Made by a program: the position numbers and the translations under genes. A stretch of DNA of 32,000 nt from Nostoc sp. PCC 7120 = FACHB-418. Lineage in GTDB: Bacteria > Cyanobacteriota > Cyanobacteriia > Cyanobacteriales > Nostocaceae. A model generated the notes under the pieces. It was not told the origin of the DNA, did no database searches, and was given only the letters and a program-made list of their open reading frames with translations. This document shows positions 18,435 to 32,000 of the stretch, in pieces. The DNA lies in contig NC_003272.1 in NCBI RefSeq assembly GCF_000009705.1, forward strand, positions 4,830,001 through 4,862,000, given 5' to 3'. Positions within the stretch are counted from its first letter, which is position 1. Each line of letters begins with the position of its first letter.

Positions 18435-20972
18435 TTAAAAACTCGCACTTACTCGCACACCATAAGTTACTGGGTCGCCAAATCCCGCAGTTACATTAGG
18501 TGGTGGGAATAGGAAACCAGAGGTGATATAACGAGTATCAAACAAGTTATTTGCATATAAATAAATGCCATATTTTTCACCTTCATAACCAATCCGGGCA
18601 TTTACTAGGGCATAGGGGTCTTGCTTCACCTGGTTAGCATCATCAAAGTAAGTTATTCCATAACCGCGTAATTCTGCACGGGCAAAAATACCACCAGGAC
18701 TGCGATATTGAACGGCTAAATTGTAGGTTAATTCCGGTGCGAAAGGAACGCGGTTGTTGCTAAAGTCTCGATTTGTGAAAGAATTTCTATAGTTTTTAAA
18801 TTTGCTGTCCACGTAGCCAATACCAGCAATTAAATCTAGTCCTTGTAAAGGATTGGCTTTGAGTTCAAATTCTAAACCTGTAACTTTGACGTTTGCATTG
18901 GTAACGTTTCTAAAAAAGCCAAAATCATCGGTCAGCAGCACTTGGTAGTTATCAACATCGCTTTGAAAAATAGATAGGTTTGCACTCAGACGGTCATCTA
19001 ACCAAGAAGATTTTAAACCTGCTTCGTAAGTCCAGGTGGTTTCTTCTTGAAATCGGCGTGTATCTTCTGTATCTGCACGGTAGTTAAATCCACTTGGTCT
19101 GTAGCCTTTCGCTATTGTGGCGTAAGCCATTAAATTGGGATTGAAGCGATACTGTAAGCCAAAGCGGGGGATAAATGCGTCACTATTAAGGGTAGCATTG
19201 CGTACTTCTGCGGTGGGTGGATTGGCTGTACCATCAGGATTGACAAAAACACGGCGACGGTCGAGTTCAGCGTCAGCAGTTTCATAGCGCCAACCTGCAA
19301 ACAAAGTTAGTGGTGCAATTGGTTTGTAGTCAATCTGTCCGAATATGGCGTAGGTGTGGCGATTTTGTTCTGCGGAAACGCGATCGCTCCCTGACGCTGG
19401 TAAGCCAAAGAATACTGCACCAGCATCACTATATTTAAAGGTGTCATCTAGAACATTAAAATTCCGTGACTCGTAATATCCACCAAGTAACCACCGCAAA
19501 CGATCGGCACTTTCAGGGGACTGGAGGCGAAATTCCTGTGACCACAAGGTTGAATTGATACCGATAATTTGCTGTAGCAAATCACCGGGGAAATTGTCGC
19601 CCACCAGGGTATTTTGATTGCTAAATCGCCTGGTGGTAATGGATGTAGCCCGAAATCCATCGCCGTTGTAGCTAATTTTTAGCGCTTGGGTATTAGTGCT
19701 GAGACGATGGAAACCGTCAACTTCTTGGGAAACTTGAAAAGGGTTTTCTGCGTTTTGTCGAGAAAAGGTAGGATTGCCGTTATCGTTGTCACTAGCATAA
19801 GCGTTAAACGATATATTCCATTCTGGTGTGGGTGTCCAGAGAATTTGGGCGCGTCCTGTGAGTTGCGATCGCTCTCCTATTGGCTTATTCAGAAAGGTAT
19901 TGTCAAATACGCCATCTCGTGCATTGTATGCGCCTGCTAGTCGAAATGCCAGTTTATCAGGAATAATTGCATCGCTGAGGGATAATTGCAATTCCCGGTT
20001 GTTATAGCTACCATAAAGAGCGCTAATTCGCATCTCTGGCTGATTACTTGGCGGGCGAGAAATCACATTCACCACCCCAGCCGGACTACTTCTACCATAG
20101 AGGGTGCTTTGGGGGCCTCGCAAAACTTCTACCCGTTCTAAATCAATCAAACCAACATCTAAAAAGCCGCCATAATCGAAGGGAACATCATCAATGTAAA
20201 AGCCAACGGTGTCTTGATTGGCTAAAAAGTTAAAGTTATTTAACCCCCGCACACTGTAGTAACTAAAATCAGCACTCCCCGCAGTCGTGGGGAGAAAACT
20301 AAAGTTGGGTGTATTGTTGGCGATATCTTGGAAAGAACGAATTTGAGCGTCTTCGATTTCTTGCTGAGGAATTACCGTCAAGCTAAGAGGGACATCCTGC
20401 GCGTCTTCGGGGCGTTTTTGGGCGGTTACTATCAATTCAATGTCTGGGGAAGTAGGAGTAAGGGCGATCGTTAAACCATTAGATTGATTTACTACCTGGA
20501 TTGGTGGTAGCTTCCCTGAAGATGCGATGGTTACACGTACTGTGTTGTTAGATTCTTGCTGTGTTACCGTCACATAAGAAATACCATCAACTGGTGTGTC
20601 TTCCCGAAATTCCTTTCCTTCTGGTAAAGCTAGTACTGCATTGGGGATATCTGCAATAAATATATTGCCTTCTTGAAGAGTTTCTGGTGCAGATATTTCT
20701 CCATCTGGAGTTTCCAGAATTATCTCAAAATTATCGTCTGTACGATTGATTCGCACACCAGTAATCTTGATTTTTGGAGGGGTTGGCGCTGACTGTGATA
20801 GCCAATCTTTAACACTTGTTGGTGGACGCTCAATATCACTCAGTCGAGGAATATTTGTAATTAATCCAATGTTCTTTGTGTTTACCGGCTTCTCTTGTGC
20901 ATTTGCTTTCTGAGTTATCAACAAGCAAATCGTACTTGCTATACCTATATAGATACACTGATTTAGTTTCAA
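18435..20972 (-). CDS. iacT: TonB-dependent outer-membrane transporter with an N-terminal AMIN-like domain; likely the IacT (iron and copper transporter) orthologue
   Basis: Plug motifs (RVEVLRGPQSTLYGRSSPAGVVNVISR), a long barrel and a C-terminal aromatic residue (..VSASF). An AMIN-like segment (KITGVRINRTDDNFEIILETPDG...) precedes the plug. Start set at the TTG at 20972, giving a plausible signal peptide MKLNQCIYIGIASTICLLITQKANA/QE. The track ORF starts at the TTG at 21020. Confidence 0.85.
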   Translation of the reverse strand: MKLNQCIYIGIASTICLLITQKANAQEKPVNTKNIGLITNIPRLSDIERPPTSVKDWLSQSAPTPPKIKITGVRINRTDDNFEIILETPDGEISAPETLQEGNIFIADIPNAVLALPEGKEFREDTPVDGISYVTVTQQESNNTVRVTIASSGKLPPIQVVNQSNGLTIALTPTSPDIELIVTAQKRPEDAQDVPLSLTVIPQQEIEDAQIRSFQDIANNTPNFSFLPTTAGSADFSYYSVRGLNNFNFLANQDTVGFYIDDVPFDYGGFLDVGLIDLERVEVLRGPQSTLYGRSSPAGVVNVISRPPSNQPEMRISALYGSYNNRELQLSLSDAIIPDKLAFRLAGAYNARDGVFDNTFLNKPIGERSQLTGRAQILWTPTPEWNISFNAYASDNDNGNPTFSRQNAENPFQVSQEVDGFHRLSTNTQALKISYNGDGFRATSITTRRFSNQNTLVGDNFPGDLLQQIIGINSTLWSQEFRLQSPESADRLRWLLGGYYESRNFNVLDDTFKYSDAGAVFFGLPASGSDRVSAEQNRHTYAIFGQIDYKPIAPLTLFAGWRYETADAELDRRRVFVNPDGTANPPTAEVRNATLNSDAFIPRFGLQYRFNPNLMAYATIAKGYRPSGFNYRADTEDTRRFQEETTWTYEAGLKSSWLDDRLSANLSIFQSDVDNYQVLLTDDFGFFRNVTNANVKVTGLEFELKANPLQGLDLIAGIGYVDSKFKNYRNSFTNRDFSNNRVPFAPELTYNLAVQYRSPGGIFARAELRGYGITYFDDANQVKQDPYALVNARIGYEGEKYGIYLYANNLFDTRYITSGFLFPPPNVTAGFGDPVTYGVRVSASF

Positions 20973-21200
20973 GGCTGCCCCACACTCCACAAAAACCACA
21001 CCACGAGACTGAGAACGCAACTCTTAAGTGTTACATCCATACTTCCAGTGATATTGTTTACTTCATGGAATAGGCTTGTCAAAAGACAATCTGTCAAAGA
21101 ATATCCTCATCTCTATCTGGGACTATAAACACCTTAGTTTCTGCATATCTGGGGATGAGAGCAATTTCTGATAAAGATGAGAGTTGTTGCTGTAAATTTT

Positions 21201-21416
21201 TCAGTAATAAGAAAGCTTTGTCATAGAGTGTAGTTTCTCTCTGTTGGCTTCAGAGTAACTGCCGTGCTGCATTTTTTCAATCCCTAGCTTGAATAAGTCG
21301 CCTCCTGGGATTTCCGTGTCCGATGGAGACAATGAATATGCAGGTAAAGTAAAAAAACAGCAGACGAGTGTAACAGCAATACCCAACTTGAAGATGAATC
21401 GATAAAAGCGACTCAT
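21201..21416 (-). CDS. Small putative secreted protein, possibly a truncated or frameshifted remnant
   Basis: 71 aa with a signal-peptide-like N-terminus (FIFKLGIAVTLVCCFFTLPAYS). No family recognised. See the finding on a possible frame change. Confidence 0.3.
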   Translation of the reverse strand: MSRFYRFIFKLGIAVTLVCCFFTLPAYSLSPSDTEIPGGDLFKLGIEKMQHGSYSEANREKLHSMTKLSYY

Positions 21417-21934
21417 AATAACATCTCACTTGATTAGCAGAGCAAAGTAAGTAGATCAGGCACATACCTTACCTACTATTTCTTAACTAGAGAACAACAA
21501 TCTTATTGTCGTATTCTGACTTTATTTCCCATCCTTGTCTGCTTTTCCCAGCACATATATATGCTGCAACATCCCCAATTTGATTTGATTTTAAACGACC
21601 TGTCAAATGACAGACAGTCAAACTGTCTGGCTTGGATTTGTGCGATGGGTTATCTTCTCCTGCGCGAACGCACATACGGTAAACCCAATCTGCCAAGTAT
21701 AAACTTTTAGTATTTGGGGATTAGCTTTGATTCTTAGTACGGCTTTGCATAAAATCATGGCTGGTTGAGGGTGGACATTTAAACGTAAAGGCGCGCAAAG
21801 GTAAGCGCAGAGAAACTTAAGTTATGCGATCGCCCCAGCTTTTGCTGATTCTGGTACACTGGCAATTACTTTACGTTTTAAGTAGCGGCTGAATTTCAGC
21901 ATCATTGCTGTGGTAGTATTTTTTCAATATCAAC

Positions 21935-22055
21935 TCGGTTCTGGTGGGGATCAGCCATCAGAGGTAAGGGGGAAAGTCCGGTGTAAATCCGGCGCTGTCC
22001 CGCAACTGTAATGGGGCTTATGCCTCAAAGTCAGAATGCCCGCCGAAAGTACAAC
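21935..22055 (+). promoter_or_regulatory. Cobalamin (B12) riboswitch aptamer
   Basis: Conserved core GGGAAAGTCCGGTGTAAATCCGGCGCTGTCCCGCAACTGTAA (21969-22011) and B12 box AAGTCAGAATGCCCGCC (about 22028-22044). A possible P1 pairs GGTGG (21943-21947) with CCGCC (22040-22044). Confidence 0.9.
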
Positions 22056-22287
22056 AAATTCTTATCTGCGAGGTACAGATGAATAACGCAATCAATACTC
22101 TCCCCCTTAAAGAGGATCACTATCTCATAGCGTCATATATACGCCACACACTACAAATTTCTATGAGATTGTAGATATTTCCTTACAGATATCAATACTT
22201 ACACAGAAGGTTATAGATACAAACTGGAAAACACAGTTGTATTTTATCTTTCGCTTTGCATATTTACTTTATCCAAGCTAGAGGTAA

Positions 22288-22428
22288 CTTTACGCCTACC
22301 TGCATCAAACGCTTAACAGCGAATGCGCCTAAGCCTCCTCGTTGCCTTAGTTTCTCTTTTAGAGAGAGACGCTACCACGAACCCACAGTGTAAGGGGTAC
22401 GGGAACGCCTAGCGGTAAATGCGTAAGG
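22288..22428 (+). repeat. Dispersed ~110-140 bp repeat with imperfect terminal inverted repeats, copy A, inserted in the riboswitch leader
   Basis: Termini ctttacgcctacc and ggtaaatgcgtaagg are inverted. It shares gcgaatgcgccta, gagacgct and cgaac blocks in the same order with copy B at 26168-26274. Confidence 0.65.
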
Positions 22429-22465
22429 CTAATTCATGCTATCAATCAGCAACGCCTGAAAATCA

Positions 22466-22876
22466 ATGAGCAAAAAACAACATACTTTATTTGTCTGCAC
22501 GACCTGCGCCAGTGTGTGGCAAGATGGCAAGCGAGTTGGCGAAAGTGGTGGACAGCAGCTATTACAACAACTCCAAGCACTTGCACAAACTTGGGAATTG
22601 CAACATAAATTCTCCATTCAGGGAGTTGAATGTATGAGTGCTTGCAACCATGCTTGCGTTATTGCCTTTACGGGAGAAGAGAAGTTAACCTATCTTTTCG
22701 GCAATTTAGCAGTTGATGATAGCGCATCTGCAATACTGCAATGCGCCACTCAATACTACAATAAAGCATCTGGTTTACTACCTTGGTCAGAACGTCCAGA
22801 AGCTTTAAAAAGAGGCATCTTAGCCAAAATTCCACCCCTAAGTAAGTGGGCAAAATTCCATCATAATTGCTGTTAA
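22466..22876 (+). CDS. DUF1636-family predicted metal-binding (Cys-rich, thioredoxin-like) protein
   Basis: 136 aa with Cys motifs FVCTTCAS and ECMSACNHAC, and a C-terminal LPWSERPEALKRGILAKIPPL block that I recall as typical of DUF1636/COG5469 proteins, which occur next to cobalamin genes. Confidence 0.7.
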   Translation: MSKKQHTLFVCTTCASVWQDGKRVGESGGQQLLQQLQALAQTWELQHKFSIQGVECMSACNHACVIAFTGEEKLTYLFGNLAVDDSASAILQCATQYYNKASGLLPWSERPEALKRGILAKIPPLSKWAKFHHNCC

Positions 22877-22990
22877 TTTAACACCAGTAGTCCATCCAGT
22901 TCGTAGTCAGGACTTTAGTCCTCAAAACTCTCAGCACTCAAGTACTGACTACAAACTTAAAAACTAGCTTGTAAATTACACTATCAGTGT

Positions 22991-23009
22991 GATAATAATA
23001 ATCATTATC
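22991..23009. promoter_or_regulatory. Fur box (iron box)
   Basis: GATAATAATAATCATTATC matches the classical 19-bp consensus GATAATGATAATCATTATC at 18 of 19 positions. It lies about 100 nt upstream of the receptor ATG at 23111. Confidence 0.75.
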
Positions 23010-23110
23010 TAAACATAGCAATTTTCCTACTGGCTGAGAGTTTTTTACCGAAAAAGCTCAAATTTCTACTTGAGAAAAATTTTTAGTTATACAGGTGGCT
23101 TCAATTACCA

Positions 23111-25240
23111 ATGCGTACTCAGTTTATTGCCAGATGGGGAACTCAACTTATCGTTTCTAGTTTGACTATCACCGCAGGGATGCTGTGGGAAAATTCCAGC
23201 ATGATAGCCACAGAAGTTCTACAAATATCCGAGTTTCCGCAAGAGGAAGGTTCAGCCAAAGACTTACAACCAGTTACAGAAGTAATATCTCAAGATACGA
23301 CAGAAACCGAACCCGACATTCAACTGACAGTCATTGACAAACTCCTCAATGAACCTGTATTTTCCCCTTTTCGCCGCGAGGGAACAGTAAAAGATTCCAC
23401 CCGTCCGGTGTATGTGATTACTGGCGAAGAAATGGAAGCACAGGGTGCAATAACTGTCAGAGAAGCACTGCGATTTCTTCCTGGTATTTTGGGTGACGGT
23501 ACAGTTGGGACAGAAGTAAACGCCTTAAGTGGTCAATTTATTCGCGGTTCTAATACCGGACAAGTATTAATCTTATTGGATGGCAGACCAATTAATAATT
23601 TAGGTGGTGGTGGTTTCGATTTGTCAGAATTTACCACTAATAATATTGAAAGAGTTGAAGTCTTACCAGGAGGTGGTTCAACACTTTATGGTTCAGATGC
23701 AATAGGCGGGGTAATTAATATTGTTACCCGTCGTCCTACAGAGAAAATCACCACAGAAACCAAAGTTAATTTCGGTTCCTATGGACTTAACCAACAAAGC
23801 ATTCAAAATAGTGGAAAATCAGGTGATATTTCTTGGGTAATTGGTTACAACCGTACCCAAGCACAAAATAATTATCGCTTTACTATTCCTGAAGCTAACT
23901 TTGAGGGAACAAGAAGAAATAATGACGCACTCTTTAATAACTTTAACGTCAAACTAGAGGCAAATTTCGGTTAACGTAACACCTTAACCCTCTCCACCCT
24001 ATATTTAGGTAAAGAACAGGGAGTACCGGGAGGTGTACCTATTCCTGTACCCGAATTTGGACAGGGATTTTTTAACTCTCTGACTGAGAATTATCGCAAA
24101 TACACAGACCAAGTTCTCACTGATTTAACCTGGAACTCTAAATTAGGCAGTGGTGATGATTCTCTATTAACAGCGAGAGTTTACGCTGATTTTCTCAATA
24201 CTCGCTTTGATGACCGTAGCGGTGCAATCACATCTCAAAACCGCTTTGATACTAAACAAGATTCCTACGGGATTCAAACCACACATAGCTGGAACTTTGC
24301 CAAGAATCAGACCTTAGTTTATGGCTTTGATTATCGTCATACAAATGTACGCAACACCACGTTTAATTATGGGACAAATATTACTAGAGAAAATTATGAT
24401 GATGCTATAGGTCAAGGGGCAATTTTTGGAAAGTATGAAATTAACTTTTCTCCTAGTTTGAGTATGAATTTAGGAGTGCGGCAAGATTTTAGTAGTTTGG
24501 TAAATGGCTCATTTACATCACCATCTATAGGGGCAAAATTTGCAGTTTCAGATTCAACTACACTCCGCACTAACTATATAAGAAACTTCCGCGTGCCTAC
24601 TATAGTCAATTTATTTAATAATAATCCTACTAATATTGGTAATCCTGACCTTAAACCAGAGAAGGGGGATAGTTTTGATGTAGGAATTGACCAAAAATTA
24701 GGTAATATTGGCTTGTTGAGGTTGACATTTTTTAGTAACCGTGTCTCTGATACAGTTGCCTTTAAAAGACTCACGCCCCCTGTAAATGGAAATACAGGGA
24801 CTTGGGAAAATATCGGGTTAGTACAAACTACAGGAATTGAAGCTTCTTTAAATTTACAACTGGCGAAAAATATCTATGCTTTTGTGAATTATACGGCGAA
24901 TGATCCGCGTATTTTAGAAAGTGCTAATCCGGCGGAGGTTGATAAGGCGTTAAGGTTTGCAGGTGCGGATAAATTAAATTTGGGTGCGTCTTATGAAAAT
25001 CCTCAAGGTTGGTATTTGGGGGTGTTGATGAACTCCTTAAATGGATATCCCACTAATAATATTAATACGGAGTTTCTTTCGGGGTATACTACTTTTGATT
25101 TAAAGATGCGTGTACCTATTAGTGATAGTTTGGTTTTAACTGGGAGTTTGGATAATCTGTTTGATCAGCGTTATCAGTTGTTTCCTGGTTATCCTGATGG
25201 GGGGAGGGTTTTTCAGGTTGGGTTGAGTTCTCGGTTTTAA
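23111..25240 (+). pseudogene. BtuB-like TonB-dependent receptor interrupted by a single in-frame TAA (codon 288, 23972-23974). The ORF track shows it as two pieces, 23111-23974 and 24458-25240
   Basis: Both track ORFs are in the same frame. My hand translation of 23975-24457 in that frame has no stop and reads like TBDT barrel sequence (RNTLTLSTLYLGKEQGVPGG...). There are plug motifs (IERVEVLPGGGSTLYGSDAIGGVINIVTRRP) and a terminal ..GLSSRF. Confidence 0.8.
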
Positions 25241-25282
25241 AAAGAAGAGTTTTAGTTTTTTTCACGCAAAGGAGAATTAAGA

Positions 25283-26155
25283 ATGGCTGAGTTTAATTGT
25301 TGGGTGACACTTGTTAATGAGGTAGTTAAGGAAGATTTAGCTACGGGGGGGTTTATTGAGTATGAATATTTTGATTGTGGCAGTGATGTTTTAGCATCGT
25401 TAGTTTATACCTTGTTTGAACAGAATTGGCAACAAGTTGGCATTGCTCATATTGTTCAAGGTAGTGTTTTAGAGTTGGAATTTAATGCACCACCAAAGCT
25501 GTGTATTCTCTATGATGGCTATTTGACGGTAGCGGCTGAGGGTTGGCATTTACATTTATGTATTGATACTAATTTTGGTGGCCCTTTGTGTAAAACTCCT
25601 GTGGAAGTGAGGAAGCAACGTTTAGTTTCTCGTGCGGCTTTTTATCGGCGGTTTAATACAGAAGGAAATCCTAGAAGTTGGGGGATTCAGTTTTGGAATG
25701 GTGCGAATGAACAATTAATGACGATTTTGTTACCTAATCCTTTGGTAGATGGAGAAAATTTATTACCAGAGGGTAAACCAAATCTAGATAAGTTAGCTCT
25801 TTATCAAGATTTGCGAGATATTTATGTATTAGGTAAAAAACCCATACCCTTTAGCAAAAATCCTCTCAAACATTCCTATATTTCCGTTTGTACCTCTACA
25901 CGCTGTCTGCCTTCTCGTAAATGGCAACCTACATTTGATGCTTTAAAATCAGCAGTAGAAAACGCAGGTTTAGACATCGAAGTCAGAACATCTGGCTGTT
26001 TAGAAGTGTGTCAACTCGGCCCAGTTGTTTTTTATTCCAATGATAGAACTTGGTACACTCGCGTTAACCCCAACGTTGCCGAAAATATCGTCAACGAACA
26101 TCTAATCAAAGGTAACAAAATCACCGAAAACCTCTACCCACCCCAAACCCTCTAA
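25283..26155 (+). CDS. Two-domain protein: N-terminal ~195 aa of unknown function fused to a C-terminal thioredoxin-like [2Fe-2S] ferredoxin domain
   Basis: AAGGAG lies 8 nt upstream of the ATG. The C-terminal domain (about 25871-26152) has CX4C...CX3C (VCTSTRC ... GCLEVCQLGPVVFY ... WYTRV). There is no signal peptide. Confidence 0.8.
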   Translation: MAEFNCWVTLVNEVVKEDLATGGFIEYEYFDCGSDVLASLVYTLFEQNWQQVGIAHIVQGSVLELEFNAPPKLCILYDGYLTVAAEGWHLHLCIDTNFGGPLCKTPVEVRKQRLVSRAAFYRRFNTEGNPRSWGIQFWNGANEQLMTILLPNPLVDGENLLPEGKPNLDKLALYQDLRDIYVLGKKPIPFSKNPLKHSYISVCTSTRCLPSRKWQPTFDALKSAVENAGLDIEVRTSGCLEVCQLGPVVFYSNDRTWYTRVNPNVAENIVNEHLIKGNKITENLYPPQTL

Positions 26156-26167
26156 TCTCCTTTAAAT

Positions 26168-26274
26168 CTTTGCGTCTACCCTGCGGGAACACCTTACGGC
26201 GAATGCGCCTACTCTTCTCATTCTCCTGTCGGAGACGCTGGCGCGAACGAGAACGACTTCGTCGAATGCGTGAG
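26168..26274 (+). repeat. Dispersed repeat, copy B, between the ferredoxin-fusion gene and the SBP gene
   Basis: ctttgcgtctacc ... gcgaatgcgccta ... ggagacgctggcgcgaacg ... gtcgaatgcgtgag, collinear with copy A at 22288-22428. Confidence 0.65.
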
Positions 26275-26280
26275 ATAAAA

Positions 26281-27483
26281 ATGATAAAACTCCCACACAA
26301 AAAACCAATCATTTTCTTCTGTCAATTATTCCTCATAGCCACCCTCATCATCGCTTGTCATCAGACCACAATTCACACATCAACTAATACCTGCACCCCC
26401 AACTATAACCCCAATCAAGATTACTTTCCCAATAAAATCAAAATCACCCACGCCAGAGGTTTGGCGGTAGAATATCACAAACATTACAAAGTAGTCACTA
26501 TTAAAAACCCTTGGCAAAATGCCAAAACTCAGTTTCAATATGTTTTAGTCCAATGCGGAACTCCCACACCCCAAGGATTTAAGCAGGCGCAAGTAATTAC
26601 AGTTCCCATTCACTCTATAGTTTCTCTATCAACTACACATCTACCCCACCTAGCCAAATTAGGCGTAGTTGATAAACTAATTGGTATTAGTAATAGTAAA
26701 CAAGTCAATACTCCTGATGTAGTTGAGAGAATCAAAGCCGGAAAGATTACACAAGTAGGTAATAATTCTAATGTAGACATAGAAAGGTTATTAGAATTAA
26801 ATCCTGACTTAGTAACAACTTTTGGAACAGGAAATTCCCAAACTGATAGTTATAGCAAACTCACGGAGGCAGGTTTGAAAGTCGGGATAAATGCTGAATA
26901 TATGGAAGATACGCCATTGGGAAGAAGTGAATGGTTGAAATTTACGGCTTTGTTTTTTAATCAAGAAGAAAAAGCAGAAAAGATATTTGCAGAAATTACT
27001 GATAAATATGAACAAGTAGCTCAAAAAGTCAAATCTGTAAAAAACCGTCCAACAGTATTTGTCGGATTTAACTTTAAAGGTACTTGGTTTATGCCTGGTG
27101 GGAATAGTTACGTAGCGAAATATCTTGCTGATGCTGGAGGTGATTATCTCTGGAGTAATGAGCAATCTGCTGGTAGTCTACCGCTTTCTTTTGAAGTTGT
27201 TTTGGAACGTGCGACAAATGCTGACTATTGGTTGAATTTTAGCCAATCTTGGCAGAGTTTAAAAGATTTATTAGCTGAAGATAATCGCTATGCTGATTTT
27301 AAGTCTGTGAAAATAGGCAATCTTTATAATAATAATGCCCGTGTTAATGAAAGTGGAGGTAATGATTACTGGGAAGGTGGAATTAGTAACCCAGATATAG
27401 TTTTATCTGACTTAATTAGAATACTGCATCCAGAGATATTACCGAATCATCAATTATTTTATTACCACAAAATTCTTAAATAA
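26281..27483 (+). CDS. ABC transporter periplasmic substrate-binding lipoprotein, iron-chelate/cobalamin (BtuF/FhuD, Peripla_BP_2) class
   Basis: Start at the ATG at 26281 gives a signal peptide with a lipobox (LIATLIIAC). It has the typical SBP core (IVSLSTTHLPHLAKLGVVDKLIGIS ... LNPDLV). The upstream part of the track ORF translates the repeat element. Confidence 0.8.
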   Translation: MIKLPHKKPIIFFCQLFLIATLIIACHQTTIHTSTNTCTPNYNPNQDYFPNKIKITHARGLAVEYHKHYKVVTIKNPWQNAKTQFQYVLVQCGTPTPQGFKQAQVITVPIHSIVSLSTTHLPHLAKLGVVDKLIGISNSKQVNTPDVVERIKAGKITQVGNNSNVDIERLLELNPDLVTTFGTGNSQTDSYSKLTEAGLKVGINAEYMEDTPLGRSEWLKFTALFFNQEEKAEKIFAEITDKYEQVAQKVKSVKNRPTVFVGFNFKGTWFMPGGNSYVAKYLADAGGDYLWSNEQSAGSLPLSFEVVLERATNADYWLNFSQSWQSLKDLLAEDNRYADFKSVKIGNLYNNNARVNESGGNDYWEGGISNPDIVLSDLIRILHPEILPNHQLFYYHKILK

Positions 27484-28571
27484 TGTTAAGTGAAAAATAT
27501 AAATTTAAAAACTCTTTATTAACCCACAATTCTCAAATTATAAAAAGCCTTATTTTCTCAGTTTTATTAATAGGTTTACTATGTGCCTTTTTATTAGACT
27601 TAGCTTTAGGCTCAGTTGATATCCCTATCAACGAAGTAGTCAATATTTTACTCGGACAAGAACCAGAAAAAGCAACTCATGCTCATATTATTCTCAAATT
27701 TCGCTTACCTAAAGCTTTAACTGCAACTTTAGCAGGTGCAGCTTTAGGTGTGAGTGGCTTACAAATGCAAACCTTATTTAAAAATCCCTTAGCGGGGCCT
27801 TTTGTATTGGGAATTAGTTCTGGTGCAAGTTTAGGTGTGGCGTTAGTTGTGCTGACAGCAAGTGTAACAACACCAACATTATTAACAGATTTGGGAATCA
27901 TTAGTGATTTTGGTTTAGTTATAGCAGCAAGTCTCGGCGCAGCATCAGTTTTAGGGATGATGTTAGTTGTGTCTCGCCGAGTGCAAGACACAATGACGCT
28001 ACTGATTTTAGGTTTATTGTTTGGTTATGCTACTAGTGCAATTGTGAGTATTTTGTTGCAGTTTAGCTCAAAGGAACGCATTCAAAATTATATTATGTGG
28101 ACTTTTGGGAGTTTTGCTGGGGTGACTTGGAAACAGTTAATTGTTTTAATTCCAGTGATAGTTTTAAGTTTATTAGTGGCGGTGTTGCAATCGAAGTCTT
28201 TAAATGCGCTGTTATTGGGAGAAACTTACGCACGTAGTTTAGGCTTAACAGTACAGAAAACTAGATTTTCAATTATTACTAGTGCGTCTATATTAGCAGG
28301 GGCAATTACGGCTTTTTGTGGCCCTATAGCATTTCTAGGTGTGGCTATTCCCCATCTGTGCCGTAGTTTATTTAATACTTCCGACCATAGAATGTTAATC
28401 CCTAGTGTAATAATTATGGGTGCAATCTTAGCATTAATTGCTGATTTGTTTTCTCAACTTTGGGTAAGTCAGATGGTTTTACCTTTGAATGCAATTACTG
28501 CTTTAATTGGTACTCCTGTTGTAACTTGGGTAATTCTGCGGCGTAATTCCCAAAAATCTTTCCCGTCATGA
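27483..28571 (+). CDS. FecCD/BtuC-family ABC transporter permease
   Basis: 362 aa, about 9-10 TM segments, motifs RLPKALTATLAGAALGVSGLQMQ and GPIAFLGVAIPH. The start overlaps the SBP stop (TAATG). Confidence 0.9.
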   Translation: MLSEKYKFKNSLLTHNSQIIKSLIFSVLLIGLLCAFLLDLALGSVDIPINEVVNILLGQEPEKATHAHIILKFRLPKALTATLAGAALGVSGLQMQTLFKNPLAGPFVLGISSGASLGVALVVLTASVTTPTLLTDLGIISDFGLVIAASLGAASVLGMMLVVSRRVQDTMTLLILGLLFGYATSAIVSILLQFSSKERIQNYIMWTFGSFAGVTWKQLIVLIPVIVLSLLVAVLQSKSLNALLLGETYARSLGLTVQKTRFSIITSASILAGAITAFCGPIAFLGVAIPHLCRSLFNTSDHRMLIPSVIIMGAILALIADLFSQLWVSQMVLPLNAITALIGTPVVTWVILRRNSQKSFPS

Positions 28572-29581
28572 GTAATCCAATTTTAACAACTCACAATCTG
28601 ACTATTGGTTATAAAACATCCAGAAAAAATGTTCGGTGTGTTGCATCAGATATTTCGGTATCTCTGCAATCTGGGGAAATGGTTTGCTTACTTGGCCCCA
28701 ATGGTGCGGGTAAGTCTACATTACTGCGATCGCTCGCCGGAATGCAACCCCCAATAGCCGGAGAAGTCCGACTCTTAGGCGAAAACGTCTATCATTTACA
28801 ACCACAGAACTTAGCCAAACGTATGAGTTTGGTACTGACTGAGAAAGTTGATGTAGGAATGCTATCAGCCTACACTTTGGTGAGTTTGGGACGACATCCT
28901 TATACTGACTGGTGGGGGAGGTTAACTCCTGAAGATGAAGCAATAGTACATTGGGCGATAAAATCTGTAGGAGCAGTACACTTAGCACAACGCCAAGTCA
29001 GTGAATTAAGTGATGGTGAACGCCAAAAAATTATGATTGCGCGTGCTTTGGCGCAGTCGCCGATGGTGATGTTATTGGATGAACCGACGGCATTTTTAGA
29101 TTTACCACGGCGGGTGGAAATTATGCAATTGTTGCGTCAATTAGCACGAGAAACTAATCAAGCAATTCTCCTTTCTACCCACGATTTAGATTTAGCTTTG
29201 CGGCTTGCTGATAAAGTTTGGCTATTATCAACTGGTGGAATTTTACAGGTTGGCGCACCTGAAGATTTGGTGTTAAGTGGTGCTTTTGCTGATACTTTCC
29301 GCAGTGAAGGTGTGGAGTTTGATATGTTTTCTGGGGAGTTTCATTTACATACACCAGTCAAGGGAGAAATTAATTTGATAGGTGAAGGTATCGCATCTGT
29401 GTGGACTATTCGTGCTTTAAAACGTGCAGGCTTCCAAGTTAATCAAACTCAAAATAATTTGCCAATCTCAGTAGAAGTGATATCAAATTCTCAACAATTT
29501 TTGTGGAAAATCACAAACAGCCAGACTGTATATATTTATCAATCATTGTCTGAAATGATTAAATTTTTGGATTGTTTATAA
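28568..29581 (+). CDS. ABC transporter ATP-binding protein (FecE/BtuD-like) with an ~80-aa C-terminal extension
   Basis: Walker A GPNGAGKST, signature LSDGERQ, Walker B MVMLLDEP, H-loop STHDL. An ATGA stop/start overlap links it to the permease gene. Confidence 0.9.
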   Translation: MSNPILTTHNLTIGYKTSRKNVRCVASDISVSLQSGEMVCLLGPNGAGKSTLLRSLAGMQPPIAGEVRLLGENVYHLQPQNLAKRMSLVLTEKVDVGMLSAYTLVSLGRHPYTDWWGRLTPEDEAIVHWAIKSVGAVHLAQRQVSELSDGERQKIMIARALAQSPMVMLLDEPTAFLDLPRRVEIMQLLRQLARETNQAILLSTHDLDLALRLADKVWLLSTGGILQVGAPEDLVLSGAFADTFRSEGVEFDMFSGEFHLHTPVKGEINLIGEGIASVWTIRALKRAGFQVNQTQNNLPISVEVISNSQQFLWKITNSQTVYIYQSLSEMIKFLDCL

Positions 29582-29717
29582 AGTACTGTCTCTATATTCC
29601 ATCTAACCTGATTATGTATTAGTGGGGTAATTGGTCATAAGAATGGGGTGTGGGGAGTTGTGAGTGTGTATTTGCTGTATTTCGTCTCCCTTACACCCAG
29701 TCCCCAATCCCCAGTCC

Positions 29718-29936
29718 CTAATCAATCGATATCGACTGAGGGCCACTGGCTTTGCCATTATGTGCGTCAGTTACGGGAAAAGAATAACTGTTAACGCCTC
29801 TTTGCTTATCTAACCAGCTTTTAACGGGATCATCAGCCAAGTTGAGTCTCAACACTCCAGAGGCAAATCCACCCAAAAAAGAGGCTGGATGTTGGACTAA
29901 TTGTTTGAATATGGGTGACAGTTCATCAATGAACAT
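29718..29936 (-). CDS. Small conserved hypothetical protein
   Basis: 72-aa ORF downstream of and co-directional with nrdJ. No recognisable motif. It begins with ATG and is bordered by repeat sequence. Confidence 0.4.
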   Translation of the reverse strand: MFIDELSPIFKQLVQHPASFLGGFASGVLRLNLADDPVKSWLDKQRGVNSYSFPVTDAHNGKASGPQSISID

Positions 29937-30036
29937 TTAAATTTCTCCTGATGTTGGTGTAAAAATATCAAATCTTCATCAATCTTAACGTGTAAATTCA
30001 GGTAGGTTTTCAGAGAAGCCAATAGTCATTACTTGA

Positions 30037-30169
30037 GGACTTACGCATGAAAACGAAAAATCAAGGGTTTGGAGAAGGGTATAGGGGTGTCAATGTTTAA
30101 AATCCTTACACCCCTATATCCTTACCCTCTTATACCCAGTCTTAACAGGAAACCTGGGTGTGTAAGTCC
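30037..30169 (+). mobile_element. MITE-like dispersed repeat, copy 2, with terminal inverted repeats GGACTTAC / GTAAGTCC and an internal hairpin
   Basis: TIRs lie at 30037-30044 and 30162-30169. An internal palindrome pairs gggtataggggtgt with acacccctatatcc. It is the reverse-complement match of 14341-14450. Confidence 0.75.
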
Positions 30170-30195
30170 TATACTTTTGACTATTGACTTTGGAA

Positions 30196-32000
30196 TTAAT
30201 TAGGACTTTGTTCAGGCATCATGCACTTATCAGAGTCACAACCGGCTGGGCCGACTTCCATTAAATCGCCGAAATCGTAGCGACTTAAGACGGCGTAAAA
30301 ATCATCTGTTTTACGACGTTGTACAACTTCTTTCACCATTTGCTCATACTGTTCTTTTGAGATTGGCTCAAATGGTAAACGGGGGAAGGTTTGGTGGTCA
30401 TCGAATCTGGCGAGGAGTGCTGCACTGATGTAGCCTTCATCATTTTGAATGGCTTGCCAGATTTGTGTGCCTAAGGTTTCCACTTCGTGTTCTCGCACTT
30501 CGATGGTTGCAGATGTGTTGTGGGTGACATAGAATTTCTGCACCTGCATATAGAAATCCATTTGGGCGATCGCATTAAATTTGCTAATGTCGATGGTATC
30601 CGCCCCCGGTATATCAGCCCAAGATACAGCCACGGGGATTTCTACTAACCATTCACTCACCCGTGGATCTAACGGATCGTTCAGCAAATTACCCTGTTCA
30701 TCCTTGTCTGACTGGGAAGGTATGACATTGTAACCGTAGTCAATACAAGCCAAAGCCACCGGGTCATTTTTGCGGAATGTAATCCGACGAATAAACCTTT
30801 GAGCTTTGGGGGGATGCCAACCGGGACTAGCACCAGTTAATAAAGACTTTGTGCCACTAGGTTGGACGGTGGTACAGCGATTTGGACGCTTAATGTTATG
30901 GCGATCGCAATAATCCCACACAACACGCTGCACAATCTCGCGCCAAGAACTGAGGTATTTTTCTTCCTCGCGCTTAAATGCCAATCCTTGGGGCGTTGCT
31001 GGTCGTCCTGCTTCCCACCATTGCAGCCACTCTGCACCAAAAGCATGAACAAAGAAATCAAATAAACCAGTGAAAGAAACACCGACAATGGGGTCTAGTT
31101 CCCGACTATATTGATAACGCGGTTCTGGGAATTTGTGATTTAACAGTGTCGCTACAGACAAAGCCCCAGCAGTGAAGGCCTCCTCTTGTTCTTTGTAATT
31201 AAATGGGTCAATTTGATTTAAGTGGATTTCCGATAAGTTGCAGTGAAAATTGCTACCTATTATTTCTCCGCACGGATTTAAAGCATAACGAGCCAAACGG
31301 TGTTTTAGCTCTTTTTCATCAAAATGAGGGTGTCGTTTTTGCAACCAGTCTTTAGCCGTTCCTTGTTCATAAGCTTTGAGAAACTCTACTTTCAAAGCTT
31401 GTGTTGGTAGTAAATCAATATTGGCTCTAGCTACAGCTTCACCAGCCCATTGAATTGCCCCTTCGCCACTGTAGTATTGTTTACGTACAGCATCAACGCA
31501 CTCTTCTAATGTGGGCTTGCGGTGAAAGACTCTGGTGTGGTTCGCCATCCGCAAAGAATCACGCTCAGGATCAATACGCCATCTGCCATTTTCATCTTGC
31601 TGCCATAGGTTATCTTTGGCAGCTGCCCCTAATTGGTCATCAGAGATGAACTGACGCATTCCGGCACTGTTATGTGTGAGATAGCCGTCGCAGTAGAAGC
31701 AATGAGCTTCATCGACTTCTATATCATAGGTTTGAACATGATCGTAACTGCCTAATCCTTTCACTGTGACAGGAATATCTAAGGAAATATCTGCCTCAGC
31801 AACGTAGCGTTCGTAATTAGCATCTACAGTACGGGAGCCTTGAAATCCCATCTCGCGCATTTCGCTGTAGGTGTAAGTTTCCCGCATGACTGCACCAGGA
31901 ACGGTAAAACCATACATTTTCAGGCCTTGACGTAGTTCACCTTTAGCTGAATGCGGCGAAATCAGGGCATTGTAACGCTCCTTTAGCGCTGGAATTGTCA
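30196..32000 (-). CDS. nrdJ: Adenosylcobalamin-dependent (class II) ribonucleotide reductase, C-terminal part, containing an intein (5' end outside the window)
   Basis: TVQPSGTKSLLTGASPGWHPP and CGEIIG..FHCNLSEI motifs of monomeric-type class II RNR, plus a C-terminal CDSDKC redox pair. The frame is open upstream of the track ATG all the way to position 32000. Confidence 0.9.
   Translation of the reverse strand, partial: TIPALKERYNALISPHSAKGELRQGLKMYGFTVPGAVMRETYTYSEMREMGFQGSRTVDANYERYVAEADISLDIPVTVKGLGSYDHVQTYDIEVDEAHCFYCDGYLTHNSAGMRQFISDDQLGAAAKDNLWQQDENGRWRIDPERDSLRMANHTRVFHRKPTLEECVDAVRKQYYSGEGAIQWAGEAVARANIDLLPTQALKVEFLKAYEQGTAKDWLQKRHPHFDEKELKHRLARYALNPCGEIIGSNFHCNLSEIHLNQIDPFNYKEQEEAFTAGALSVATLLNHKFPEPRYQYSRELDPIVGVSFTGLFDFFVHAFGAEWLQWWEAGRPATPQGLAFKREEEKYLSSWREIVQRVVWDYCDRHNIKRPNRCTTVQPSGTKSLLTGASPGWHPPKAQRFIRRITFRKNDPVALACIDYGYNVIPSQSDKDEQGNLLNDPLDPRVSEWLVEIPVAVSWADIPGADTIDISKFNAIAQMDFYMQVQKFYVTHNTSATIEVREHEVETLGTQIWQAIQNDEGYISAALLARFDDHQTFPRLPFEPISKEQYEQMVKEVVQRRKTDDFYAVLSRYDFGDLMEVGPAGCDSDKCMMPEQSPN
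31669..32000 (-). other. Intein (C-terminal portion) inside nrdJ; splice junction ...THN/S at 31669/31668
   Basis: Intein block F/G signature TYDIEVDEAHCFYCDGYLTHN followed by a +1 Ser. The codons were checked by hand: AAC at 31671-31669 and AGT at 31668-31666. Confidence 0.85.

Follow-up and report, generated by a model that had tools for sequence, protein, structure and literature searches.

alr4030, a DUF7676–[2Fe-2S] ferredoxin fusion in the cobalamin uptake operon of Anabaena PCC 7120, as a candidate cytoplasmic receiver of imported corrinoid

Haem uptake operons show the gene order hemR-hemS-hemT-hemU-hemV, and the HemS protein uses a His axial ligand together with an Arg; haem degradation has been reported for both ChuS and HemS. 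ChuX and HutX, whose genes lie in uptake loci, carry haem in the cytoplasm, and HutX passes it to HutZ; haem-handling proteins of these kinds act as carriers or enzymes and not as regulators. For vitamin B12, the fate of the molecule in bacteria right after its release into the cytoplasm by BtuCD is poorly defined. The FldA-CobA, PduS and CobR systems supply electrons to protein-bound corrinoid cobalt ahead of adenosylation, BtuM resides in the membrane, and CblC depends on flavin/GSH. To our knowledge, CblC is missing from most bacteria, and early B12 processing has been tied only to BtuM and to the adenosyltransferase/flavodoxin pair.

The window studied here is the whole 32,000-nucleotide stretch of the Nostoc sp. 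PCC 7120 (Anabaena PCC 7120) chromosome that was analysed, and the features of the alr4030 region are collected in Table 1. The alr4030 gene lies inside a published B12 operon yet is unnamed and unstudied there, being mentioned in passing (PMC10878165). Its frame is complete from ATG to stop and encodes a product of two domains, the opposite strand is dense in stop codons, and a GGAG sequence is found 8 nt 5' of the start codon. The gap from the receptor stop codon to the alr4030 ATG is 42 nt, and that from the alr4030 stop codon to the start of the next gene is 14 nt. The product is an exact match to BAB75729.1, which carries the database label '(2Fe-2S) ferredoxin domain-containing protein'. 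No signal peptide was seen when the N-terminal sequence was read by eye, and this, together with the fused Fe-S domain, suggests that the protein is cytoplasmic.

Table 1. Features of the alr4030 region (positions are those of the window).
Feature	Position	Strand	Evidence
Cobalamin riboswitch aptamer RF00174, operon head	21919..22061	+	cmscan 49.8 bits vs 31.5-bit gathering score, E 9.9e-10
alr4027, DUF1636 ('metal-binding protein'), first gene 3' of riboswitch	22466..22876	+	PF07845 E 1.4e-45; weak PF01257 match
btuB2 (alr4028-alr4029), TonB-dependent receptor	23111..25240	+	plug and beta-barrel domains; best NCBIfam similarity TonB-B12 model
alr4030, fusion of DUF7676 and thioredoxin-like [2Fe-2S] ferredoxin, 290 aa	25283..26155	+	Pfam, translation
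DUF7676 (PF24724) domain, residues 18-181, predicted ChuX/HemS-like fold	25334..25825	+	Pfam, model, Foldseek
Glu64, candidate ligand or active-site residue	25472..25474	+	99% conserved, ~190 family members
His89-x-His91-x-Cys93 motif, candidate cobalt/axial ligands	25547..25561	+	conservation, predicted strand
Thioredoxin-like [2Fe-2S] ferredoxin domain, residues 196-285	25868..26137	+	phmmer, cysteines, Foldseek
Predicted cluster cysteines C203, C208, C239, C243	25889-25891, 25904-25906, 25997-25999, 26009-26011	+	
btuF (alr4031), periplasmic binding protein	26170..27483	+	PF01497 residues 150-386, E 2.4e-29; btuF name from PMC10878165
btuC (alr4032), FecCD-type permease	27483..28571	+	PF01032 E 2.6e-78; best NCBIfam match BtuC
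btuD (alr4033), ABC ATPase	28568..29581	+	PF00005 E 1.9e-31; best NCBIfam match corrinoid ABC transporter ATPase

As the original prediction had it, the gene stands between a TonB-dependent receptor gene and ABC-transporter genes (26170-29581), and the import operon proposed at that time was found to be one for cobalamin. The RF00174 aptamer lies upstream on the same strand and the genes that follow are co-directional and tightly spaced, making alr4030 a component of the cobalamin-riboswitch-regulated btu operon of Anabaena PCC 7120. This operon, alr4027-btuB2-alr4030-btuFCD, has been described as under cobalamin-riboswitch control, with the riboswitch likewise placed between iacT and alr4027, and its co-transcription and Co/B12 regulation in PCC 7120 have been published (PMC10878165); the PCC 7120 primers of that study match the locus exactly in 18 of 18 cases. 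Cobalt starvation induces the operon ~ 100-fold, in an organism for which a cobalamin synthesis pathway is predicted by bioinformatics, and cyanocobalamin uptake requires the operon, with phenotypes displayed by btuB2, btuF and btuD mutants (PMC10878165). The riboswitch, the induction by cobalt starvation and the requirement for cyanocobalamin uptake together indicate that the operon cargo is B12, and since that cargo is a corrinoid, the release of iron from a chelate, which had been offered as one possible function, is unsupported. An AdoCbl-dependent class II ribonucleotide reductase is encoded nearby (30196-31917).

Several details of the neighbouring genes were also recorded. The btuB2 frame is continuous but for one in-frame TAA (23972-23974), and alr4028 and alr4029 have been counted as one gene (PMC10878165). 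BtuF bears a 149-residue N-terminal extension ahead of its Pfam domain, and the receptor and the binding protein also gave sub-threshold matches to haem receptor and IsdE models. Kinship of DUF1636 with thioredoxin-like [2Fe-2S] ferredoxins has been argued (PMC4520260), and the idea that alr4027 is a duplicate of the alr4030 C-terminal domain was ruled out, BLASTP similarity between the two being absent. A start site 5' of alr4030 has been cited, which would co-express alr4030 and btuFCD independently of the riboswitch (PMC10878165). Scanning of positions 21000-30200 for promoters and terminators returned counts near shuffled expectation (32 vs 24.2 ± 4.8 and 8 vs 7.4, respectively).

The C-terminal domain of the alr4030 product contains the arrangement C203-x4-C208 and C239-x3-C243, with the sequence LGPVVFYS..TWYTRV, and none of the four cysteines varies among 42 cyanobacterial homologues; all align with cysteines of HydB. 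In a phmmer search of PDB chains with the whole protein, this domain matched HydB (7q4v_B, E 1.9e-9), in its [2Fe-2S] N-terminal domain, and Fdx4 of Aquifex (1f37, E 2e-6), and the Pfam 2Fe-2S_thioredx model (PF01257) scored 21.9 bits, just under its gathering cut-off of 24.8 bits. When the predicted model was compared with 1m2a, 1m2d and 5abr by Foldseek, TM(target) values of 0.76-0.77 were obtained at an rmsd of 2.1-2.6 Å over ~ 98 columns, the value for 1m2a being 0.76. The thioredoxin-like [2Fe-2S] ferredoxin that had been proposed for this end of the protein was thus confirmed at the level of sequence and predicted fold, and the cluster is predicted accordingly from the four cysteines. 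A potential near -300 mV would be expected for a ferredoxin of this class.

The N-terminal domain, which the original prediction had been unable to place in any family, matched Pfam DUF7676 (PF24724), a family with no assigned function, at E 2.2e-62 and 209.9 bits against a gathering cut-off of 27 bits, over model positions 4-166 of 166. A search of the accessible literature found no description of the DUF7676 family, with or without a link to cobalamin, ChuX, HutX or HemS. An AlphaFold model of the domain was obtained with a pLDDT of 92.5 and a pTM of 0.87, and when it was searched against the PDB by Foldseek the best 24 matches were all ChuX, HutX, HemS, ChuS or PhuS proteins or entries from structural genomics, two of them labelled haem-binding and three unannotated. 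These 24 matches had E values from 6.5e-5 to 1.7e-2, a probability of 1.0, TM scores of ~ 0.5-0.6 and 11-21% identity; past rank 24 the probability collapsed. The full-length alr4030 model likewise found ChuX/HemS-type entries. At the level of sequence, the Pfam ChuX_HutX and HemS models gave no match to alr4030 at E <= 0.01, a 29-sequence DUF7676 profile gave no relevant match among all PDB sequences at E <= 10, and phmmer of the whole protein against the PDB matched the ferredoxin domain alone. The predicted likeness of DUF7676 to the ChuX/HutX/HemS superfamily is therefore one of shared fold and is confined to the fold level, common ancestry not being established because sequence and profile matches are absent. 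An earlier, unverified impression of a ChuX/HutX-like domain was borne out to this extent in the predicted models, and in place of a well-characterised family unrelated to cofactor handling, the domain was found to belong to DUF7676 and to have a predicted fold of the haem-handling type.

Across ~ 190 members of the DUF7676 family, His89 is conserved in 96%, His91 in 97% and Cys93 in 93%, alongside the nearly invariant Glu64 (Table 1). Residues 89-93 form one beta-strand in both predicted models, full-length and N-domain, and the three motif residues may serve as cobalt or axial ligands, as far as conservation can indicate. Many stand-alone members of the family also possess a short C-terminal tail with His or Cys; stand-alone homologues occur, for instance, in Terasakiella and Methylocapsa.

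The distribution and gene context of the family were then considered. DUF7676 relatives are encoded at at least 578 places, from at least 600 pattern matches in a collection of species-representative genomes. Loci were retrieved with a 10-sequence DUF7676 subset as the query, the family-wide alignment being too diverse, and neighbours were counted in 80 loci by searching their DNA with neighbour clusters (tblastn). The usual slot of a stand-alone DUF7676 gene is just 3' of a TonB-dependent receptor gene and 5' of btuFCD or of a gene for a small membrane protein. A TonB-dependent receptor was immediately upstream in 35 of the 80 loci, and genes for an ABC ATPase (32 loci), a binding protein (31), a FecCD permease (26), CbiZ (12) and a PduO-type adenosyltransferase (6) were present near DUF7676 in this set. 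Neighbours of the TonB, ABC or B12-salvage type were present anywhere in the locus in 61 cases, and the remaining 19 were without a transporter or B12 neighbour by the tblastn cluster test. Loci without btu genes had mixed surroundings (MMPL, aminotransferase, MiaB-like, glutamine synthetase, Rieske oxygenases, histidine kinase). The original proposal presupposed a genomic association with transporters, and a strong one was observed across phyla. Moreover, a cobalamin riboswitch on the same strand was detected upstream of DUF7676 in 23 of 36 loci scanned, and likewise in Cyanobacterium stanieri. A heavy-metal P-type ATPase gene was directly upstream of DUF7676 in one locus (L038), and neither cobW nor cbiM was seen beside DUF7676 in the loci examined. 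The small membrane proteins, designated 'cl9', gave no PDB-sequence, Pfam or NCBIfam matches, and a word-indexed homologue search returned only four 'hypothetical proteins'; they constitute a partner family and may represent a new B12 transporter of the inner membrane.

Corrinoid adenosyltransferases, CbiZ, a separate thioredoxin-like ferredoxin and a ferredoxin-CobA fusion were recurrent neighbours of DUF7676. In a locus of the Chloroflexales (L027) the order was riboswitch, binding protein, permease, ATPase, thioredoxin-like ferredoxin and DUF7676, and in another from the Chloroflexota (L058) DUF7676 was located between a PduO-type adenosyltransferase and a fusion of thioredoxin-like ferredoxin with CobA/BtuR (PF02572, E 7e-57). 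A CobA or PduO gene was directly upstream of DUF7676 in three further loci (L070, L033 and L066). It may be that the adjacency of adenosyltransferases and CbiZ reflects only a shared membership of B12 salvage operons.

A different setting was found for two diverged fusions of NHase_beta_N to DUF7676, which are encoded convergently with the genes for the nitrile hydratase alpha and beta subunits. The adjoining alpha subunit contains the sequence VCTLCSCY, which we take to be the signature of Co-type nitrile hydratase, and a His-rich extension, and the E/H/H/C site of DUF7676 is kept in the fusion. A strictly corrinoid ligand is hard to reconcile with such a site in an accessory fusion beside a Co-type nitrile hydratase, and with this subfamily in view the central matter may be cobalt and not corrinoids alone. 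The fusion is rare, being found in 1 of 150 representatives among the matches listed and in four metagenome loci.

A possible reading of these data, put forward tentatively and at somewhat under an even chance, is that alr4030 receives and processes the imported cobalamin in the cytoplasm, as a B12 counterpart, by analogy, of HemS, PhuS and ChuX. The DUF7676 domain would bind the corrinoid that BtuCD releases into the cytoplasm, with the face bearing Glu64 and His89-x-His91-x-Cys93 probably ligating or positioning the cobalt, and the fused [2Fe-2S] domain would pass single electrons to take Co(III) to Co(II) and possibly to Co(I). Reduction of the cobalt would let the upper ligand (CN or OH) leave, and the corrinoid could then be handed to an adenosyltransferase for use by AdoCbl-dependent enzymes, for example the class II ribonucleotide reductase encoded close by. 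Where DUF7676 stands alone, in other phyla, the electron donor would be a separate ferredoxin of like type or a ferredoxin fused to the adenosyltransferase. The original prediction had envisaged a reductase or chaperone for the imported cofactor, and a function of this kind is what we infer for alr4030. It could be, however, that cobalt itself is the object, an explanation considered somewhat unlikely, in which DUF7676 is either a cytoplasmic Co(II) metallochaperone using the Glu64/His89/His91/Cys93 site or a HemS/ChuS-like enzyme that opens or demetallates imported corrinoids with electrons from the ferredoxin, the cobalt going to de novo pseudocobalamin synthesis or to non-corrin cobalt enzymes. 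The E/H/H/C set is nearly invariant (93-99%), as is typical of a metal site, and the short tails with His or Cys on many stand-alone members resemble those carried by several metallochaperones. The retention of the site in the fusions beside Co-type nitrile hydratase points the same way, as do the heavy-metal P-type ATPase gene of L038, the haem degradation reported for the structural relatives ChuS and HemS (PDB titles) and the strong response to cobalt starvation in a predicted cobalamin synthesizer (PMC10878165). Against this, the main context of the family is corrinoid uptake and salvage, and the presence there of adenosyltransferases and CbiZ implies that corrinoids are used rather than destroyed. 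Furthermore, a corrinoid-demetallating enzyme would be without precedent, as we know of none, cobW and cbiM were not seen beside DUF7676 in the loci examined, and the nitrile hydratase fusion is rare (see above). A more specific form makes DUF7676 an enzyme of cobalt salvage, a 'HemS/ChuS for B12', whose demetallation or ring-opening of imported corrinoids, driven by the fused or neighbouring ferredoxin, feeds de novo pseudocobalamin synthesis in cobalt-starved cyanobacteria and, in the accessory fusions, Co-type nitrile hydratase. It is quite improbable; if it is true, recovery of cobalt from corrinoids would for the first time have a known enzyme.

The frequent position of DUF7676 beside genes for inner-membrane transporters, BtuFCD or 'cl9', could also suggest a regulatory or gating partner, the domain detecting corrinoid in the cytoplasm, or using its Fe-S cluster to read the redox state, and modulating BtuCD or the small membrane protein instead of processing the cargo; the start site cited 5' of alr4030, with the riboswitch-independent co-expression of btuFCD that it would give (PMC10878165), would be consistent with this. 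Such a role is judged distinctly doubtful, as the Pfam search of the alr4030 product turned up neither a DNA-binding nor a signalling domain, cofactor chemistry is indicated by the fusions to and adjacency of adenosyltransferases and a ferredoxin, and the relatives in haem handling serve as carriers or enzymes and do not regulate. Likewise, the predicted fold matches haem-binding proteins and the receptor and binding protein have sub-threshold resemblance to haem receptor and IsdE models, from which it could be supposed that alr4030 is a genuine haem-binding ChuX-type protein and that the operon wholly or partly imports haem. This is very improbable, and haem import was rejected on account of the cobalamin riboswitches, upstream of this operon and in 23 of the 36 other loci, the CbiZ and corrinoid adenosyltransferase neighbours and the published cyanocobalamin uptake phenotype of the btuB2, btuF and btuD mutants (PMC10878165); the Pfam ChuX_HutX and HemS models, moreover, found no match. 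The database label, which names the ferredoxin domain only, would be in keeping with a general-purpose ferredoxin that has a purely structural N-terminal domain and is only a passenger among the operon genes. That is hardly to be expected either, given that the N-terminal domain is the conserved and widespread part, that it holds the B12 uptake slot even without a ferredoxin, and that the degree to which its residues are conserved suggests a specific site.

As a putative receiver and reducer of imported corrinoid, alr4030 is a testable candidate for the missing B12 receiver/reductase step. DUF7676 is a widespread, riboswitch-controlled and predicted cytoplasmic family with a predicted tetrapyrrole-carrier fold in a HemS-like operon slot, and its cyanobacterial members bring their own electron-transfer domain. 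Anabaena PCC 7120 is a model organism in which mutants of genes neighbouring alr4030 already exist, and the question has a bearing on the exchange of B12 and pseudocobalamin among cyanobacteria, heterotrophs and algae. The tie between DUF7676 and the maturation of cobalt-type nitrile hydratase was unexpected.

Among described systems, the HemS/PhuS/ShuS/ChuS proteins are close in several respects. One of their repeats matches the predicted fold of the alr4030 N-terminal domain (probability 1.0, query-normalised TM ~ 0.45-0.5), and they occupy the same gene slot, between a TonB-dependent receptor and a binding protein, permease and ATPase, the order btuB2-alr4030-btuF-btuC-btuD matching that of hemR-hemS-hemT-hemU-hemV. 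Both are cytoplasmic, by prediction in the case of alr4030, and both belong to metallo-tetrapyrrole uptake operons. However, DUF7676 is a single domain of ~ 180 aa, whereas the HemS type is a tandem duplication of ~ 340 aa; the two are separate Pfam families with no detected sequence similarity, and the cargo is haem in one case and corrinoid in the other. DUF7676 also differs from HemS in its conserved Glu/His-x-His-x-Cys site and, in cyanobacteria, in the fused [2Fe-2S] domain. In size and single-domain build, DUF7676 is like ChuX/HutX (PDB 2ovi, 6u9j and 5exv), which are among the best Foldseek matches of its model (E 7e-5 to 1e-3, TM 0.5-0.6), but alr4030 is set apart from them by another ligand, other conserved residues, the fused ferredoxin and the lack of a Pfam ChuX_HutX match at E <= 0.01.

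The C-terminal domain shares its predicted fold and Cys ligands with Aquifex Fdx4 (1m2a/1f37) and the N-terminal domains of the HydB/NuoE type, which were also its phmmer matches; unlike the latter, it is fused to DUF7676 and stands outside hydrogenase- or complex-I-type modules. CblC (MMACHC) and BtuM take newly imported cobalamin and remove its upper ligand by decyanation or dealkylation, and offer a functional analogy only; for BtuM and MMADHC, Cys-Co ligation has been described (PMC6072759, PMC12501144). Neither CblC/MMACHC nor BtuM appeared among the Pfam, PDB-sequence or Foldseek matches of alr4030, and membership of the CblC, PduS or CobR families was rejected since these were absent from its Pfam, NCBIfam, PDB-sequence and Foldseek matches. 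FldA-CobA of Salmonella, PduS and CobR perform the same job as that proposed for alr4030, the delivery of electrons to corrinoid cobalt before adenosylation, and show no sequence or fold relationship to it. In alr4030 the electron carrier would be a thioredoxin-like [2Fe-2S] domain and the holder a ChuX-like domain, whereas in FldA-CobA the holder is the adenosyltransferase itself, and it is the FldA-CobA pairing that is mirrored by the Chloroflexota ferredoxin-CobA fusion encoded beside DUF7676.

The alr4030 open reading frame runs from ATG to stop (290 amino acids), with GGAG 8 nt 5' of the ATG, and the opposite strand is closed. Its product is identical to BAB75729.1, and 18 of 18 tested PCR primers from the methods of a study of the Anabaena sp. 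PCC 7120 btu genes (PMC10878165) match the window exactly in the expected orientation; the frame was therefore identified as alr4030. The gene starts 42 nt past the stop of the receptor gene btuB2 (alr4028-29), a TonB-dependent receptor gene located between alr4027 and alr4030, and btuF, btuC and btuD (alr4031-33) lie downstream, the next gene starting 14 nt past its end. The stretch from alr4027 to btuD, including alr4030, has been argued to form one polycistronic, riboswitch-controlled transcript, and the btu system supports cyanocobalamin uptake (PMC10878165).

Coordinates of features in the window and in loci encoding DUF7676 relatives
Feature	Locus	Position	Strand	Remark
all4026 (iacT)	window	18435-21020	-	neighbour gene
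cobalamin riboswitch	window	21919-22061		RF00174, 49.8 bits
aptamer to alr4027 start codon	window	22062-22465
alr4027	window	22466-22876		DUF1636 protein, first gene after riboswitch
in-frame TAA of btuB2	window	23972-23974
alr4030	window	25283-26155	+	DUF7676::ferredoxin
btuF	window	26170-27483		'long' binding protein
class II ribonucleotide reductase	window	30196-31917	-
cl9 (Cyanobacterium stanieri PCC 7202)	L081	8922-9515
cl9 (Roseofilum)	L083	7400-7984
cl9 (proteobacterial)	L023	8583-9200		and 23 other proteobacterial loci
long binding protein (Chloroflexota)	L073	1870-3183
long binding protein (Chloroflexota)	L027	3836-5209
thioredoxin-like ferredoxin	L027	7386-7721
DUF7676	L027	8001-8576
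ferredoxin-adenosyltransferase fusion	L058	4124-5167
cobalamin riboswitch	L072	8940-9099
squalene-hopene-cyclase-like protein	L072	9154-11694
propionyl-CoA carboxylase alpha subunit	L007	3651-5639
NHase_beta_N::DUF7676 fusion	L086	1119-1976
nitrile hydratase genes beside it	L086	1967-3492	-

Several other features of the operon were recorded. The ~400 nt between riboswitch aptamer and alr4027 are long for an expression platform. A single TAA splits btuB2 into alr4028 and alr4029, which share one frame, and this internal stop has been called a genome annotation error (PMC10878165). DUF1636 has been argued to be related to thioredoxin-like [2Fe-2S] ferredoxins (PMC4520260), and the operon encodes two ferredoxin-related domains of this kind, alr4027 and the alr4030 C-terminal domain, which show no BLASTP similarity to one another; in other genomes DUF1636 heads riboswitch-controlled B12 biosynthesis operons. 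BtuF has 437 amino acids, with the Peripla_BP_2 domain only from residue 150, an architecture shared with Chloroflexota loci; the proteobacterial loci encode a form of ~300 amino acids. An AdoCbl-dependent class II ribonucleotide reductase gene (TIGR02505, E 3.9e-140) is convergent with the btu operon, and its 573-amino-acid frame matches only model positions 280-723. The N-terminal part was not found among the listed frames, which omit any that run past the window's end at 32000.

The N-terminal domain of alr4030, which the original prediction could place in no family, matches Pfam DUF7676 along its full length (PF24724, E 2.2e-62), a family for which a literature search found no function or publication. 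AlphaFold modeling gave pLDDT 85.7 and pTM 0.81 for the full-length protein (42-sequence alignment), and pLDDT 92.5 and pTM 0.87 for the N-domain alone (29-sequence family-wide alignment), the latter predicted to comprise 11 strands and 3 helices. When the N-domain model was compared with the PDB using Foldseek, ranks 1-24 were all ChuX (2ovi, 6u9j), HutX (5exv), HemS (2j0p, 2j0r, 7qxv), ChuS (1u9t, 4cdp), PhuS (4mf9, 4mgf, 4imh) or structural-genomics proteins, with probability 1.0, E 6.5e-5 to 1.7e-2 and TM 0.5-0.6; from rank 25 on, the probability was < 0.15. Within this set 2ovi and 3fm2 are labeled as haem-binding, and 3na2, 2ph0 and 2hqv carry no functional annotation. The earlier impression of a ChuX/HutX-type protein was thus borne out for the predicted fold but not for the sequence, as neither the Pfam models nor a DUF7676 profile run against PDB sequences linked DUF7676 to the ChuX/HutX/HemS-type families. 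The most conserved positions (90-99% each in ~190 members) are W49, G60, E64, P71, D78-G79-Y80-x-T82, H89-x-H91-x-C93, R113, W133, N139-G140 and P151. In both models H89, H91 and C93 alternate along one strand, and together with E64 they plausibly constitute a candidate ligand-binding face.

The C-terminal part contains C203-x4-C208 and C239-x3-C243 together with LGPVVFYS and TWYTRV, and all four cysteines are retained without exception across 42 homologues. Sequence matches are to HydB, in its N-terminal [2Fe-2S] domain (7q4v_B, E 1.9e-9), and to Aquifex Fdx4 (1f37, E 2e-6), and the model of this part resembles thioredoxin-like ferredoxins in the PDB (Foldseek; 1m2a, TM 0.76). By its ligands and predicted fold the domain is a thioredoxin-like [2Fe-2S] ferredoxin, as had been proposed from the CX4C...CX3C arrangement and GPVV/WY context; note that the Pfam 2Fe-2S_thioredx score is marginal (21.9 bits, slightly below the 24.8-bit cut-off). 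Because no signal peptide is visible on reading the sequence and an Fe-S domain is present, alr4030 is expected to be cytoplasmic.

The DUF7676::ferredoxin fusion is essentially a cyanobacterial one: the best 120 of 255 matches span 226-300 amino acids, mostly about 290, and nearly all those with a named source are cyanobacterial. An exhaustive N-domain search returned 172 cluster representatives, most full-length ones being stand-alone proteins of 175-200 amino acids, and in a genome collection with a single entry for each species DUF7676 is encoded in at least 578 places, which fall in Alpha- and Gammaproteobacteria, Chloroflexota, Methylomirabilota, Nitrospinota and other groups. Neighbors were clustered in 80 fetched loci, mapped back by tblastn and counted within 6 kb. 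A TonB-dependent receptor was present in 35 of the 80, in most ending no more than about 100 nt upstream of DUF7676, alongside an ABC ATPase (32 loci), a periplasmic binding protein (31; 27 short and four long type), a FecCD permease (26), a ~200-amino-acid membrane protein immediately downstream ('cl9'; 24), CbiZ (12), TonB (10), a PduO-type adenosyltransferase (six) and a stand-alone thioredoxin-like ferredoxin (four, all Chloroflexota). Nineteen loci had none of these within 6 kb; several have very short flanks, and one (L078) has a diverged receptor upstream. A same-strand cobalamin riboswitch (Rfam) lay 2-4.5 kb upstream in 23 of 36 full-flank loci, and elsewhere in two more. Genomes carry about ten cobalamin-class riboswitches, so by chance a 16.5-kb locus would contain one in a few per cent of cases.

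The C. stanieri PCC 7202 locus lacks btuFCD and consists of riboswitch, receptor, DUF7676::ferredoxin, cl9 and TonB, in that order. The uncharacterized cl9 family (~195-205 amino acids, multi-pass) adjoins DUF7676 in such riboswitch-receptor-DUF7676-cl9 loci lacking btuFCD, and may represent a new type of corrinoid transporter of the inner membrane. It has the conserved motif C..P...F...R.A...W..NQ..GF....YP....WG...YE...F.IN, hmmsearch shows homology between the members from proteobacteria and those from cyanobacteria (E 1.7e-35 and 2.3e-20), and the family matched nothing in Pfam, NCBIfam or PDB sequences. Four loci (L001, L002, L003, L067) contain two or three cobalamin riboswitches per 16 kb, apparently heading adjacent B12-related operons. 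In a Chloroflexaceae locus (L072) a cobalamin riboswitch lies just 3' of DUF7676 and precedes a gene for an 846-amino-acid protein with squalene-hopene-cyclase-like repeats. In proteobacterial L007 DUF7676 is directly followed by propionyl-CoA carboxylase, an enzyme of the B12-dependent methylmalonyl-CoA pathway.

In Chloroflexales L027 the two alr4030 domains occur as adjacent genes, in the order riboswitch, binding protein, permease, ATPase, ferredoxin, DUF7676. The B12 uptake locus L058 encodes permease, ATPase, PduO-type adenosyltransferase, DUF7676 and then a 347-amino-acid protein that begins with ~110 residues of this ferredoxin type (54-57% identity with the ferredoxins of L027, L049 and L073) and whose C terminus is a CobA/BtuR adenosyltransferase (PF02572, E 6.8e-57). 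These adjacencies and the fusion link this ferredoxin type to both DUF7676 and a cob(I)alamin-requiring enzyme. Directly upstream of DUF7676 lies a CobA gene in L070 and a PduO gene in L033 and L066. In Salmonella, flavodoxin reduces CobA-bound cob(II)alamin.

The best reading of these data, offered tentatively, is that alr4030 is a HemS-like cytoplasmic corrinoid acceptor with a built-in reductant for adenosylation. Corrinoid delivered by BtuCD would be accepted in the cytoplasm and held by the ChuX-like DUF7676 domain; the [2Fe-2S] domain would reduce Co(III), and perhaps also four-coordinate Co(II), releasing the upper ligand and opening the cofactor to adenosylation. Domain identities, the predicted fold, riboswitch control, the conserved neighborhood and the fusions are direct results here, whereas the ligand and the residues that hold it, the path of the electrons and the hand-over are inferred. 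The main alternative is that the protein is centered on cobalt, either chaperoning Co(II) or recovering cobalt from corrinoids, comparable to haem breakdown by ChuS/HemS. Two proteins, the cluster representative P0169 and its diverged relative in L086 (58% identity), have an NHase_beta_N domain, as nitrile-hydratase accessory proteins do, fused N-terminally to a DUF7676 domain that retains E, H-x-H-x-C, W and N-G. Both fusion genes converge on genes for the alpha and beta subunits of nitrile hydratase, of which alpha has a His-rich N-terminal extension and VCTLCSCY, the cobalt-type signature. These fusions tie DUF7676 to cobalt outside corrins, for which a role confined to corrinoids gives no account. 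The cobalt-centered alternative fits them better, as it does the metal-site-like E/H/H/C set and induction by cobalt starvation, but it fits the adenosyltransferase and CbiZ neighborhood more poorly, and on balance we consider it rather unlikely. A role in transporter gating appears improbable, and true haem binding, or a ferredoxin that is a mere passenger, would each be very surprising.

The alr4030 gene and its operon are already published and the Pfam DUF entry exists; searches of the accessible literature turned up no account of the fold assignment, the cross-phylum association with B12 uptake, the ferredoxin and adenosyltransferase fusions or the functional proposal. Kinship with CblC, BtuM, PduS and CobR was rejected, as Pfam, PDB-sequence and Foldseek searches gave no similarity to them; they are functional analogues only. 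In predicted fold, operon slot and logic, alr4030 is most like HemS, PhuS, ChuX and HutX; however, its sequence falls outside those families, and it is therefore not filed as a member. We regard alr4030 as a putative protein of the tetrapyrrole-carrier type in a B12 system.
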